Assembly (NCBI GenBank): GCA_002633005.1
Contig: NMRA01000008.1
Span: 750,985 to 814,984 of the forward strand
Reading direction: 5' to 3'
Length of the DNA stretch: 64,000 nucleotides
Source of the DNA: Phoronis australis
Taxonomy: Eukaryota > Animalia > Phoronida
Shown in pieces: positions 16,043 through 22,000 of the stretch. Each line of letters begins with the position of its first letter. The first letter of the stretch is position 1. Below the pieces are notes generated by a model. It did no database searches and had not been told where the DNA came from. It saw nothing but the letters and a program-made list of their open reading frames with translations. A program made the translations under genes and the position numbers.

Positions 16043-19000
16043 ATGTCACGCTACGCAAGGCCTCCGAATACTTCTCTTTTTGTGCGGAACATTGCGCCTG
16101 GAACCGGGTATTGTTTTCATTTTATGATACATCGTGGTCCATTATATGTGGTTAACCTAGTTGGTGACATTTTGGTGGCTGTGAAATTTATGAAATTCAA
16201 GATTTGATTGGGTCACTGACTGAGTTGTCTTGAAAATGAAACGCTGTCCGTTTTTTTGTTCAAATTGATCCCAACTGGCAACCAGCGCAGTATGATTTGC
16301 TTTTATCAGGCAAAACGCGGATGGAAATCGGTTTGGTTAAAAAGCTGGCAATTTTAGTGAAATTTTTCCAGTTCGCCGCAGTCTGACCTGCTGTCCTTTC
16401 ACTATGAAACTTGCATCAAAATTTAGCACCCCCAACCGTGGGATACCATAACGGCATAACTAGTACAACCTAATTTGTAACCTCGGACATTTACACGAAT
16501 GATGTGGTGATTAAAAGGAAGCTCTGTCTAATGAACGTCGTTTACTTGTAACGCTCTCCCGATTTTGTAACAAAGGAAAAGTCGTAATGATCGACAAGGG
16601 ACATTTGCTTCACTTTTATTGTTTGATAAATCATGATTATTTAGGAGAAAGCGACAACCTCATCAAACCACAATTTCTTCAGAATTTCCGTTTACTGGTA
16701 ATAAAATACTGAAATGTACTAACAAATTGGAACAACTTCTGGTAATTTGTTGTAATGTGCTCTGTTTTGTGGTGCATTTTACGCAAATGATCGTTCCTCA
16801 AATTTATGGAAAAACGGGCTACGAACAACATTGGTTTTTGTGCCAGTAACCAAGTTTGTTTACTCTAGGAAGAATGCATTTTTTACTGTCAGATTTTTTA
16901 TGTCAGATTCTCTTTAGCGAGTTTTGTACGTACTTCATTCCAAAGCTTATATTTTTATTTGTTGAATACAAGCTGCATCTTTGCTTTGTTGTAGTTTTGG
17001 TAAGTCACTTCGAAATGTCTTGGATTTTAAGAACCAGTTTGATGCCTGACTATTATCATTATTTAAATGAGCACTGATTAGTGTGTTGTGTGTTGTGATT
17101 GGCTCTGCTGATAAATATTGACGTGGGTTCGACATAAGCGCGTAAACGCTCGAAAATACAAGTAGAAAAAGTAAAGCACCAGTAGAAAGTTGCCCTTTTA
17201 GTCACTTGTATTATTTGAACGGCACTCGGCATTTCTTTTTGTTGCCACAATTGCAGACAAGCACATGTTTTGCTGTACACACAGCAATTGTGTCTAGTGT
17301 ACTATGTGACGACCTGTGTTAAGAAGTCGCGCTTAATAATTACCATTTTTTAACATTTGCTTTAATGGCGATAATGCTCTGGCGAGCCTGTAAATCAACG
17401 TGTAAGCGCTTACCTCCTGAGCCAGATAGAAAACAAGTAGAAAATAGGCTTCACTTGTTGACGTCTGGCATTTTTTTTCTTTTGGTCGTCTGATAATTTG
17501 AATGTCAAATATTCTAACACTCGTATTTTCGAGTGTTGAGTGCTGATGATAGTCGTGTATGTTTGCTTGATCGTGTTAACTGGTCTTGTTCCAATGCACG
17601 TTTTGTGTTTTCTTTGATTCTTAGCTCGGACGAGTTGCGCAGAATGTTTAGTAAATATGGCCATCTATCGGACGTCTATATGCCTCTGGATTACTATACT
17701 GGCCAGGAACGTGGATTTGCTTACGTACAATATCCTTAAGTTTCTAAGTATGCCCCAGCAGTTGTTGATTCCATTTCGAAGACCGCATTATGTTGTTGTA
17801 TTTCTTAAAACCTATCGATTTGTTTTCAATATAGCATACAGAGCAAAGTTGACAAGCAAGTACTGTACATGAAAGTGGCTTGGAAACTGATTTGATAACT
17901 TGGGCTAAAGCAAGCGAGTGTTACCAAGCCCAAGCGCAAGAATTGTCAGGCTGGTCAACTAACACAGTACAAGATCATTAAACATGAAGTGTGTGTTTCG
18001 GACAAGCTGGAATACATTAGTTTTAATAGTAGACTAACCAAACTCCCAACAAGATAAAGTCACAGTCACAGGTGAAATAATTTGCCTCGGATCTTTGACC
18101 AAGCAAGTTTTTTAAATGTTTCAAACCTGGACTTCAAATGTTCCTCACGTTTTTAGCCTTGTAAACCTTTCTGGTTCTACCTTGTGGTTCTACTTGAATT
18201 CTCTGACCGCTTGCACCATGAAAGACCTAGTAGGCTTGTGTTCGAAAGCCGTCACTCAAGGTCAAGGTCACAGTGAAGGCAAGTTGTCAAGGATATAGAG
18301 AGAAAGACCAAGCTATGTAGTTGTAAATTGTTCTTAAAAGATGTATCAAGACTTTCAAGGCCATCAGATGACCGCAGAATACTAAAACCAGTAGTTTGAA
18401 GAGAACCATAAATTAATCTTTTCAATCGAGAAGCCGTTCAAGGTCCAATCCTAAAAGTTTCAATTATAAACCAGAGTTTTTTGTGTAAAAGAACAATTTT
18501 AAGAGCTATGTTTCAAAGGATTTTTTTGTAAATCACTTTAACAACTTCCTAAAAGATGCAAGACTGCACTTAACTGTATTGGACAAGCAAGACAGAGTTT
18601 ACACCAAGAAAACCAAGTATGCAAATTGTAATCAAGATTTCTGGGTCCAAGCCCCAAGATCGTAAAGAACGGCGTTAAATGGAGGCATGGTAGAACACAA
18701 GCGTCTTGGCAACTGTTCAAGCTCAATTATATCCTGAAGACTATTAAAATCTTTTACCTGTGGTGAAGTTTTTAAGGATAATTCAACAAAACTAATGCAG
18801 GTGTTAGAAATGATTTCATGACCTGAGCCGTCAAATCTGGAGGTACAAATTCCATACCCATGCCAAAAATCCCCCTACTGGTAAGTGGTAACCACATGCC
18901 GTTCCCGGGTAACCAATTTTCAGTTCCAGACCTCAAAGTGTGGGTGAGGTGTGTGGTCCTTAGATGTGAAGTTTGGCCACAGGGTACAGAGCATATTTGT

Positions 19001-22000
19001 CTCTGTGGAGATAGGGGCCCGGGTCTGGATTGCAGCTGAAATTGAGTGTGGCCATTGGAACTGTTTCCACCCCCTGTAATGAATAGGTCTAACTTTCATC
19101 AAGAGTTACAGCTGGGTTTTTGTCAAAATCTGAACACGTGACGTGGCAAGGACCAACCTAAAAATTTTAAGTGCAATCAATTTTTTGACTTAGAGTAAAC
19201 TTCAACAGATTCAATGTTCTTCATGTGTTGTGTGTTGATAACTCCTTAACTATCAGAACATTTGAAGACCCGCGAGATGCTGAGGATGCCCTCCACTACC
19301 TGGACAAGACACGACTTTATGGCAGGGATCTGGAAATAGAGTTTGCCAGAGGAGACAGGAAATGTAAGTGAGAGGAGTCGTGGCCATTCAAATTGTATTG
19401 GTAAAGTAGTTGTTTTTGGTTCACGGTACCTCTCAAATGTTACACAGCTCCTTGAATTTCAGTGGTTGACTCTGTGCTCTGATTGAATTGTGCCCAGCCA
19501 GTTCATGATGTCTTGGTTGTGCAGTGTACAAACCTACCCCCTCTTGACCTTTATTGCATTCAGAATAGGGAAACTAAGATTTCACCAACAATACGGGAAA
19601 TGGGCTGTAAACTTTGAGTAACCTTTGTGGTAGGCTCCCCAAACTCCTAATGTGAATCGCACGCCCTCCCCCCTCCCTGGTGTTGTGAGGCTACCTGTCT
19701 GCTCATTTGAATTTTGAGAAGTGGAGAACTCTGGAGCTGTAATTTAATGTCACATTTATTTGAGTATATTCCACGACTGGGCCCTTTTAACTATATGTTT
19801 AGTATGTAGCATGTTTGGGATCTGTTGTTATAAGATTTTGTTAATATTAAGTGTTGTTATAATGGGTCTATATCTACAATTCTGTATTTGTATTGGTTTA
19901 ATTTCTATAACTCTTATTGACAGTGTTTTTCTCCAATCTGCATTTTTTTCTTTAGATCGTTATGCTTCCTTTAATGAGAGGGTGTAAGCATTTGCCTCTG
20001 ACTATGTCAAAATTTAGTTTTAAAGTTGATTTTTAGCCAACACTTGCCTGCCAAATAGCACCTTCTTCTGGCTCAAAACGATCAAATTGAGAATGGACCA
20101 GATATATCAACGTGAACCTTAGGTCTTCCAAAATGGCCAATAGTTTTGCGACCCTGGGGGTCAATTGGCCCATAGACATGTTTTTTTAGAATGATTCCTG
20201 TTACGACTGCCATCACAGACACTGGTCACATAGTCACAGCCCAAGGTAGTGACTGGGCAGCGACCAGAAGTACATGTGTTTGTTGAATACTGTAACGGGG
20301 AGGTAGCCTTTGTGATTGATCTTTGTAGCACCGCATCAGATGAGAAGAAAAGAGTCTGGAGGACGCTTTGGTGGTGGCCGAGATAGACGTCCAAGGTATG
20401 ATATTTGTTTAATAGAGTAAGATAGCTCCAATGACATGCACACCAGTGCCATCGATGTTTATTGAATGTCTGTGTCCTTTGTTGTGGCACATTTAAAGCG
20501 TCCATTAACCCTCCTGTCGCAATAATGAACTTAATTTGGACCAAATTGTTCCTTGGTCTCTGTAACTGATTTCTTGTCTTGGAAAGAACTGACAGTTTAT
20601 TATTGCTCAAGGAAAGGTTCTACCAGTTGACTTGTAACTGTGACATAATTTTGAAATGGTAGTGTACTGCTGGTACTTTAAATATCCATTCTACAGTTGT
20701 GAAATTTTACCACAGCCTAGAGTTGTTAGGTGGAAATTTAACTTCACTGTTAACTTGAACAGTGAGTGACGTGTGTTCGTGAGGGGCATGTCCCCATGGA
20801 CTCGACTAATGTGAATAACCTGGAGGGATATAAATGATTGCCCCTAGCTTTTTCAGGCTGTTTGAACTTTGTTTCTTTACAGGTATAGGTCTAGGTCTAG
20901 AAGTCCATACGCGCGTGGCAGGTGAGTAAATGCACCGCCGTTCTGGTCCAGAAGCTGTATCCATTATTGCCCTGCTTTCTAAAATAATTTATAGTATATT
21001 CTCATGAATTCAAGACTCAATTAAATTCAGGAAACTAAAACTTGTATATTTATTGACGTTTTGGCAATAGTCAGATATAAAATGCCCGTATTTTGAGAGC
21101 CAGTTTGATGCCCGTTATTCAGTGGAGAAAACTGACTGGTTCTCAAAATTTGGGCATGTCATATCTGACCATTACCGATATCGTTGATTATTTTTATTCA
21201 CATACGATCCATAATGACTAGGTATTTTAATTTCCAATGTCATGTGACAGCCTTGTGTGTTTGAAGGGTCCTAATGCTTCAAGAATCTCTGAGGTGTTGT
21301 GTTGCTTAAAAAGTCGTGGCATTTGAAAAGTAGAACTTAAACATTTGCATTGGATTTAATACTTTTTATGCACCCACATATTTATATTTATATGTGGGGC
21401 ACATCATGCCGTCGTCCCTGTCTGTCTGATGCTCTATCTTCAAAACCCTACAATGTATATATTCATGAAATTTGACAAATATGTTTTTTTCGTAGACGAG
21501 ACGGCACGAGTGAATTTTCGGACAGATCAGACAACAGGTGTGCCCCTGGGTTGCAATTTTAGTTTTTTTCTTTTACCTCTGTATCTGAAGAGGTCCCAAG
21601 TGGATTTTCATGAAATTTAGCAGATGTGTATCCATTAATGAGATGACGCTACTTCATCTCCAAAACCCTTTACAGGATCTTTATTAAGTTTGGCAAGTGT
21701 ATTTACATTTTGTTGACGTCAGACGATGACGGCTTTCAAACGGATCAGACTAACGCTGTGCCCCCTAGTGGCAATTTCTTTATTTTCCATTTTCCTGCTT
21801 CTTCGGAGTTCCTTTGTGGATTTTTATGAAGATTGGAAAATGGGTTTCTATTAAAAGAACGATGACATGTTGCTGTTTTCAGGTGGATTCAACATATTTT
21901 GTGCCATCTAGTAGTCTTTTTTACTGTGTTCTAGTCTTCGGTTGGATTTGGGATATTCTGCGCCACCCGGTGGCCATTTAGCGTGTACTCTAGTATGTTT

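Follow-up and report, generated by a model that had tools for sequence, protein, structure and literature searches.

A stop-codon exon used in place of a coding exon within the AT-AC intron of an SRSF10/12-like gene of Phoronis australis, with a counterpart in its tandem paralogue

Mammalian Srsf10 is the known link through which SR-protein levels are set by how active the minor spliceosome is. In the sections of Meinke et al. (2020, PMC7244321) cited here, the productive mRNA is formed by removal of an AT-AC intron that joins exon 2 to exon 4, and exon 3 is a poison exon with a minor-spliceosome donor of its own, entered from a downstream GT donor of exon 2 with the stop codon in the resulting extension of exon 2. 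The same sections describe autoregulation of SRSF10 through a GA-rich exon 3 enhancer, a polyadenylation (poly(A)) site in exon 3, and rare use of the exon 3 minor donor in HEK293 cells; its use in mouse hepatocytes is described in parts of Neumann et al. (2020, PMC7726792) and of PMC8522700. The analysis reported here concerns a 64,000-nt stretch of the phoronid Phoronis australis (assembly GCA_002633005.1, contig NMRA01000008.1, positions 750,985 to 814,984 of the forward strand; hereafter the window, with positions counted from its first letter), in which two tandem SRSF10/12-like genes, paralogue 1 and paralogue 2, each contain an AT-AC intron. A block conserved between these introns is, in paralogue 2, an 894-nt exon (exon 3) that is used instead of coding exon 2, either one or the other, and of this the reads leave very little doubt. 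A probability of about 0.7 was given to the full model, in which the choice of this either-or stop-codon exon follows from spliceosome incompatibility and a CAAG array is read as a negative-feedback off-switch. The locus is real and expressed, and is probably regulatory.

Hybrid introns with a U12 donor and a U2 acceptor are the basis of the mechanism described for JNK2 in the cited part of PMC1874599, and reviewed together with TMEM87 in that of PMC8329584; the alternative JNK exons each give expressed, tissue-specific isoforms. In Drosophila, the M1 intron of tra2 holds five CAAGR repeats within an 80-nt intronic silencer, and such repeats enhance splicing when exonic (text of PMC3245930, in part). 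A homologous U2 cassette poison exon is present in both copies of the SRSF4/SRSF6 pair, as described in the relevant part of Lareau and Brenner (2015, PMC4379411).

RNA reads were taken from three raw-read runs of one study (X2, X3 and X4) and from the contigs of one run of a second study (X1), and were aligned to 15900-20500 (paralogue 2) and 4400-6110 (paralogue 1). Five joints were listed for paralogue 2, all on the + strand. Exon 1 was joined to exon 2 in 67 reads (16/15/36 in X2/X3/X4, the order used throughout) and directly to exon 3, at 17835, in 68 reads (26/28/14). Exon 4 was reached from exon 2 by an AT-AC joint in 87 reads (37/12/38) and from exon 3 by the AT-AC joint 18728-19260 in 31 reads (20/7/4), and was itself joined to 20329 in 41/27/27 reads. 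Neither an exon 2-exon 3 nor an exon 1-exon 4 joint was among the five, with a listing floor of 3 reads and 2%. Read depth was 15-33 in bins wholly inside exon 3 and 1.2-6.7 in the two bins wholly inside the 531-nt intron that follows it; most of intron 4 had a depth of 0, and intron 1, apart from a repeat, one of 0-5. That repeat, a 32-nt piece at 17017-17048, drew many opposite-strand reads from elsewhere and raised depth in its own bin only.

The exon 3 share of exon 1 joints in paralogue 2 was 62%, 65% and 28% (heterogeneity chi-square p 3e-4), and such variation among runs is expected of a regulated choice. The exon 3 share of joints into exon 4 was lower (35%, 37% and 10%), and exit by way of the U12 intron was 2.8 times rarer for exon 3 transcripts than for those with exon 2 (Fisher p 1e-4). 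Part of the exon 3 transcripts keep the second U12 intron, and cleavage behind an ATTAAA at 18743 is possible. The sequence-only reading of this DNA, made before the reads were consulted, had taken the block for an element of the U12 intron and had offered a poison exon as the alternative. The alternative proved right, as reads enter at 17835 and a single contig at 4690, and both genes splice from the second U12 donor; the intronic element was abandoned, as exon 1 joins the block directly and the block replaces exon 2, which makes it a mutually exclusive exon.

Evidence for exon 3 is clear in paralogue 2 and weaker in paralogue 1, where exon 2 dominates. Exon 1 of paralogue 1 lies outside the aligned region (intron 1 contains a long duplication), and its joints were inferred from loose read ends: loose exon 1 ends stood before exon 2 in 13/9/19 reads, and the exon 2-exon 4 joint 4595-5890 was present in 5/12/22. 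The exon 3-exon 4 joint 5584-5890 had 4/0/0 reads. A single X1 contig connects exon 1 with 4690, through 27 loose letters and the shared AG. Three tandem AG stand at this acceptor (4682-4689), of which the single contig uses the third, not the first.

The AT-AC introns span 4596-5889 in paralogue 1 and 17730-19259 in paralogue 2. In paralogue 2, the U12-type donor ATATCCTT at 17730 is followed at a spacing of 999 nt by a second donor, ATATCCTG at 18729; the branch site TCCTTAAC lies at 19243, the AC acceptor at 19258-19259 (531 nt from the second donor), and a U2-type AG at 17833-17834. Paralogue 1 has donors at 4596 and 5585 (spacing 989 nt; the second is ATATCCTA), a branch site at 5873, an AC at 5888-5889 (305 nt from the second donor) and an AG at 4688-4689. 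The sequence-only reading had described donors, branch site and acceptor as nearly identical in the two genes and the AG as shared, and all of its coordinates, with the spacings of 999 vs 989 nt and 531 vs 305 nt, were confirmed. Its further claim, that extra sequence lies only downstream of the block, held for net length and failed in detail: the spacer between first donor and AG differs by 11 nt (105 vs 94 nt), and each block has about 64 nt of private insertions.

Both ATATCCTT and TCCTTAAC occur exactly twice on the + strand of the 64-kb window, in each case within these two introns. The branch motif stands 9 nt from the intron end in both genes, the U12 donor ATATCCT is present, and there is no pyrimidine tract. 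Sites were compared with the general U12 donor and branch consensus, from which the second U12 donors of both genes deviate at +8. The minor-intron sites of GMFB given in PMC7244321 (in the part cited) agree with the consensus used. All of these AT-AC ends are used in vivo (joints 17729-19260, 18728-19260, 4595-5890 and 5584-5890). Exons 2 and 3 both begin behind a U2 acceptor and end at a U12 donor, being joined to exon 1 by GT-AG and to exon 4 by AT-AC. No joint that removes either spacer was listed in the reads at paralogue 1 or paralogue 2. Behind the second donor, ATTAAA occurs after 14 nt in paralogue 2 (18743) and after 38 nt in paralogue 1 (5623), followed by the same three bases; hexamers of this type have a background of 1.8 per kb, and no read-end cluster was listed behind the second donors. 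A possible poly(A) signal, like that of mammalian exon 3, is suggested by this placement.

Exon 3 closes the reading frame after 41 codons in paralogue 2, where the TGA sits 58 nt into the exon, and after 44 codons in paralogue 1. The in-frame stop is 833 nt (paralogue 2) or 825 nt (paralogue 1) before the exon 3-exon 4 junction, far beyond the >50 nt used to recognize a poison exon, and the product is without most of the RRM and without the RS domain. CAAG is present in 29 copies in exon 3 of paralogue 2 and 22 in that of paralogue 1, against expectations of 7.8 and 8.8 from 1000 dinucleotide shuffles (maxima 16 and 18). The excess is on the sense strand (8 and 6 copies of the reverse complement), and the two exon 3 blocks are the windows richest in CAAG across the 64 kb.

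Other identities for exon 3 were considered and rejected. A hidden coding exon or conserved micro-peptide is contradicted by stops in all three frames and by changes that do not follow codons (4/2/4 by position); in the first 20 codons two 6-nt indels keep frame, and the short open stretch has 5 non-synonymous vs 3 synonymous codon changes. For a structured RNA or snoRNA, no Rfam match was obtained in 1000-26000, and the folding z was never below -2.0 in 26 windows. A tandem duplicate of exon 2 is out, as the two exons have no similarity (135 and 20 of 200 shuffles score as well), and so is a transposon, as the block matches only its paralogue within the window.

Between the two genes, the block enclosed by the donors aligns far above shuffles (z 25.8), and introns 1 and 4 fail to align over their initial 400 nt (z -0.6 and -0.9). 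Weak alignments were obtained for the 3'-terminal 400 nt of intron 1 (z 4.9), for the spacer (z 6.6), for the stretch that follows the second donor (z 6.8) and for 400 nt of the 3' untranslated region (z 3.8); because z rises with length, a strict comparison of these figures is not warranted. In the alignment of the two blocks (894 vs 895 nt), 831 of the 958 columns are paired. Purifying selection on both content and spacing had been proposed from the sequence. For content, it is supported at motif islands: 13 of 22 CAAG are intact in both genes, vs 131 of 870 other 4-mers (15%; binomial p 3e-6, an optimistic value in that the aligner favours repeated words), and CAAG is in 7 of the 9 identical runs of at least 8 nt. 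It is not supported for mean identity, as the block (508/831, 61%) has no excess overall over synonymous divergence at four-fold sites (24/36, 67%, in exons 1, 2 and 4; 13/24, 54%, when exon 4, which may have been converted, is omitted), and the spacing itself is without support.

Exon 4, taken with the U12 branch site and acceptor (5857-5998; 19228-19368), is 92% identical over 142 nt, and has 1 four-fold change in 12 sites vs 11 in 24 for exons 1 and 2 (p 0.03). These values hint at gene conversion or strong RNA-level constraint.

How the choice could be enforced is suggested by JNK. A spacer with a U12 donor and a U2 acceptor would be removable by neither spliceosome, and a transcript that skips both exons would have to combine a U2 donor and a U12-type AC acceptor; with the spacer unremovable and double skipping incompatible, exactly one exon would be included. 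The same interlock would block an in-frame exon 1-exon 4 product without the RRM core. By analogy with mammalian Srsf10 and Drosophila Tra2, an SR-type protein, either the gene's own product or Tra2, may bind the CAAG array and favour exon 3, and inclusion of exon 3 would then lower the amount of productive mRNA. The exon 3 product would be unproductive either through nonsense-mediated decay or by being held back by slow splicing of the weaker U12 donor. Cross-regulation between the copies, which the sequence-only reading had envisaged, is plausible because both genes carry the same motif; the sole hint of it is that X2 has the most exon 3-exon 4 joints for paralogue 2 and is alone among the runs in showing this joint for paralogue 1.

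A number of observations weigh against the full model. Only 18-19% of each raw run was read, the raw runs belong to one study, no DNA run was among those aligned, the reads are short, and a rare exon 2-exon 3 product would be compatible with the listing floor. For paralogue 1, X3 and X4 show no exon 3-exon 4 joint, an exon 1-exon 3 end was not listed in any raw-read run, and the X1 contig misses the bridging rule of 31 letters by 2 and has mismatches at 15 of its 374 letters. The spacer of paralogue 2 has a 7/9 match to the U12 branch site (17801), as compared with only 5 or 6 of 9 in paralogue 1. GA-rich words are barely enriched in exon 3 (AGAA 9 vs 5 expected; AGAGA 1 and 3 copies), in contrast to the GA-rich enhancer of mammalian Srsf10 exon 3. 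The mean identity of the block does not exceed that of four-fold sites. The stop-codon isoform accounts for 68 of 135 exon 1 joints in paralogue 2, which is high for an efficient decay target. This share would suit a model with the same exon choice in which exon 3 RNA persists as a stable non-coding RNA, possibly in the nucleus, and acts as a sponge or scaffold by holding SR or Tra2 proteins at its 22-29 CAAG sites. The isoform makes up 28-65% of exon 1 joints at a depth near that of the coding exons, the rarer exit through the U12 intron goes with an intron depth of 1-7, and 894 nt far exceeds the need of a stop codon (mammalian exon 3 has about 356 nt to its minor donor). Such a stable RNA is nevertheless considered unlikely: mouse Srsf10 E3-E4 RNA is stabilized by cycloheximide and by SMG6/7 knock-down (cited part of PMC7726792), a high steady-state share could also arise from very high inclusion with partial decay, and the folding and Rfam results gave no signal.

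Control by Tra2 rather than by autoregulation, with the CAAG array as a Tra2 enhancer governing both SRSF10-like genes, is a serious possibility, if an unlikely one. Exonic CAAGR repeats mediate Tra2-dependent activation in Drosophila (PMC3245930, in part), and the reported motif of SRSF10 is GA-rich, not the one enriched here; however, a purine follows CAAG in fewer than half of the copies (14 of 29 and 10 of 22 are CAAGR), a point that also weighs against the full model, and mammalian Srsf10 autoregulates through exon 3. Use of the mammalian route was judged highly unlikely. It would join an extended exon 2 to exon 3 from a GT donor behind the U12 donor and leave the exon 1-exon 3 product secondary, and aligned latent GTAT sites do stand just behind the first U12 donor in both spacers (4606 and 17748), 84 and 87 nt upstream of the AG and close to an in-frame stop. 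In none of the four runs was such a joint listed for either gene, as against 68 exon 1-exon 3 reads in paralogue 2. There is a very small chance that exclusivity arises from RNA pairing (a docking site with selectors) or from steric hindrance and that the U12/U2 layout is incidental. No inverted repeat common to both genes was seen by eye among the 18 and 24 listed, no folding signal was obtained, and 94-105 nt is generally sufficient for an ordinary intron, even though the spacer is short and conserved (z 6.6). That the similarity of the block is a relic of a young duplication, gene conversion or allelic mis-assembly, and exon 3 use mere splicing noise, has a nearly negligible probability. 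The block identity and the exon 4 values given above would be in keeping with it, the latter hinting at conversion there; against it, 18 of 91 RRM residues differ, introns 1 and 4 are unalignable in their 5' parts, the same runs contain transcripts of both genes, conservation within the block centres on one motif, and precise joints in half of the transcripts are not noise. Allelic mis-assembly itself is out, given the RRM differences, the unalignable introns and the expression of both genes with their own reads.

The either-or stop-codon exon was then set beside the described systems. Like mammalian Srsf10, the locus belongs to the same family and has an unproductive exon 3 within an AT-AC intron, with a U2 acceptor, a minor donor at the exon 3 end and perhaps a nearby poly(A) option. 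Unlike it, exon 1 here joins exon 3 directly, with exon 2 skipped and the stop in exon 3, and exon 3 is 894 nt and CAAG-rich rather than about 356 nt and GA-rich. The AT-AC intron is presumably at the same codon as in human SRSF10, and exon 3 corresponds to the mammalian exon by position only. Exons 6a/6b of JNK (MAPK8-9) and exons 11/11a of TMEM87A/B share with this locus a pair of U2 acceptors, a pair of U12 donors and an unremoved hybrid spacer; as in the JNK-type interlock, the short reads of paralogue 2 show one exon or the other and, above the listing floor, neither both nor none, and both ends of the spacer are used here, each with a partner of its own type. The JNK exons 6a and 6b are coding tandem duplicates of similar size, whereas the second exon here is 8.5 times longer, non-coding and without similarity to exon 2. 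As the second exon is non-coding and not a duplicate, the interlock would set gene output and not protein variety. Clustered CAAG-core repeats in the transcript of a splicing factor recall the Drosophila Tra2 elements, from which the array differs in having 22-29 copies over 900 nt of exon, in its fifth base and in being known here from sequence. As in SRSF4/SRSF6, an unproductive exon has been kept in both copies after duplication and is used less in one; in contrast to that pair, inclusion here goes together with the loss of a coding exon and involves minor-spliceosome donors.

Both genes were assigned to the SRSF10/12-like family by their coding exons. Exons 1, 2 and 4 form an open 91-codon RRM region in each gene (73 of 91 residues identical between paralogues), and RS-rich exons follow in both genes (8688-8783; 23399-23539; 24516-24621), giving a C-terminal RS domain. 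Among 128 fetched proteins, a set collected with SRSF10-like queries and containing no outgroup, the best lophotrochozoan proteins are identical to the RRM of paralogue 1 at 68-72 of 91 residues (76-79%) and to that of paralogue 2 at 63-66 (70-73%). These best matches are mollusc, brachiopod and annelid proteins, most of them named SRSF10-like or SRSF12-like; two vertebrate members (58-59 of 91 identical) rank 116 and 117 among the 128. The best match in a PDB search of the RRM was the SRSF2 RRM (E 5e-9), with no SRSF10 hit in PDB. In a 21-row tree the two RRMs are sisters (support 99/98), and the gene duplication is therefore likely lineage-specific; conversion of exon 4 could contribute to this placement. 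The two genes are paralogues, not alleles: transcripts of both occur in the same runs, and the reads of each gene mostly match it at 99% identity.

Table. Positions of exons, hybrid spacers and nested introns of the two genes in the window, with the evidence for each
Feature	Position	Strand	Evidence
Paralogue 1 exon 1, coding part	1233..1297	+	end matches loose read sequence before 4489 and 4688; translation
Paralogue 1 exon 2, 105 nt, coding	4491..4595	+	loose ends from exon 1 (13/9/19 reads); joint 4595-5890
Paralogue 1 hybrid spacer, 94 nt; U12 donor 4596, AG 4688-4689	4596..4689	+	sequence
Paralogue 1 exon 3, 895 nt, stop-codon exon; TAA 4757-4759	4690..5584	+	one contig; joint 5584-5890
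Paralogue 1 second AT-AC intron, 305 nt; donor ATATCCTA, branch site 5873	5585..5889	+	sequence, joint
Paralogue 1 exon 4	5890..5993	+	joints; translation
Paralogue 2 exon 1, coding part, 65 nt; GT donor 16108 common to both isoforms	16043..16107	+	joints 16107-17625, 16107-17835; translation
Paralogue 2 exon 2, 105 nt, coding, RRM core; U2 acceptor, U12 donor	17625..17729	+	joints
Paralogue 2 hybrid spacer, 105 nt; U12 donor ATATCCTT 17730, U2-type AG 17833-17834	17730..17834	+	sequence
Paralogue 2 exon 3, 894 nt, stop-codon exon used in place of exon 2; TGA 17893-17895	17835..18728	+	joints, depth
Paralogue 2 second, nested AT-AC intron, 531 nt; donor ATATCCTG, shared branch site TCCTTAAC and AC acceptor; partly retained	18729..19259	+	joint, depth
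Paralogue 2 exon 4, 104 nt, rest of RRM	19260..19363	+	joints; translation

Other features of the window were recorded alongside. In paralogue 1, exon 4 is followed by two exons with look-alike starts (6391-6488 and 6584-6647), and exon 4 is joined to one or the other, as seen from loose read ends behind 5993; in paralogue 2 (20150-20245 and 20329-20395) exon 4 joins the second only, and the first survives as a decayed 3' half. The RS exon 23399-23539 of paralogue 2 contains a 21-nt unit three times, with fewer copies in paralogue 1. Local duplications of 500-600 nt surround a single N near 2354 and near 22424 (about 1770-2350/2550-3150 and about 21940-22430/22430-22910); they lie in introns of the two genes and are possible assembly artefacts. 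Exons at about 53000-62530, judged by eye from translations of the open reading frames, presumably encode a Cys-loop ligand-gated anion channel subunit.

No report of an exclusive exon 1-exon 3 isoform of SRSF10, or of an invertebrate exon 3, was found in open literature text, although figures or supplements may show the mammalian joint. The arrangement joins two known devices in a new variant. A wider reading is offered tentatively, at odds somewhat short of even: the either-or two-spliceosome poison exon would be the ancestral bilaterian SRSF10 switch, the minor donor of mammalian exon 3 its remnant, and the GT donor of mammalian exon 2 a later rewiring; in Phoronis, one CAAG-binding protein would govern how much both paralogues yield, by way of an abundant 900-nt enhancer exon, with the incompatibility controlling gene dosage and not protein isoforms. 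The locus suggests that an unproductive exon in the SRSF10 AT-AC intron exists far outside vertebrates, and its wiring differs in that both outcomes would call on the minor spliceosome and the choice falls between two U2 acceptors. It could explain why mammalian exon 3 has a minor donor that is little used, and is a further case of hybrid-intron exclusivity, one that leads to an off state. With 29 vs 22 CAAG and high vs low use, the two genes form a natural two-copy system for motif dosage and cross-regulation.

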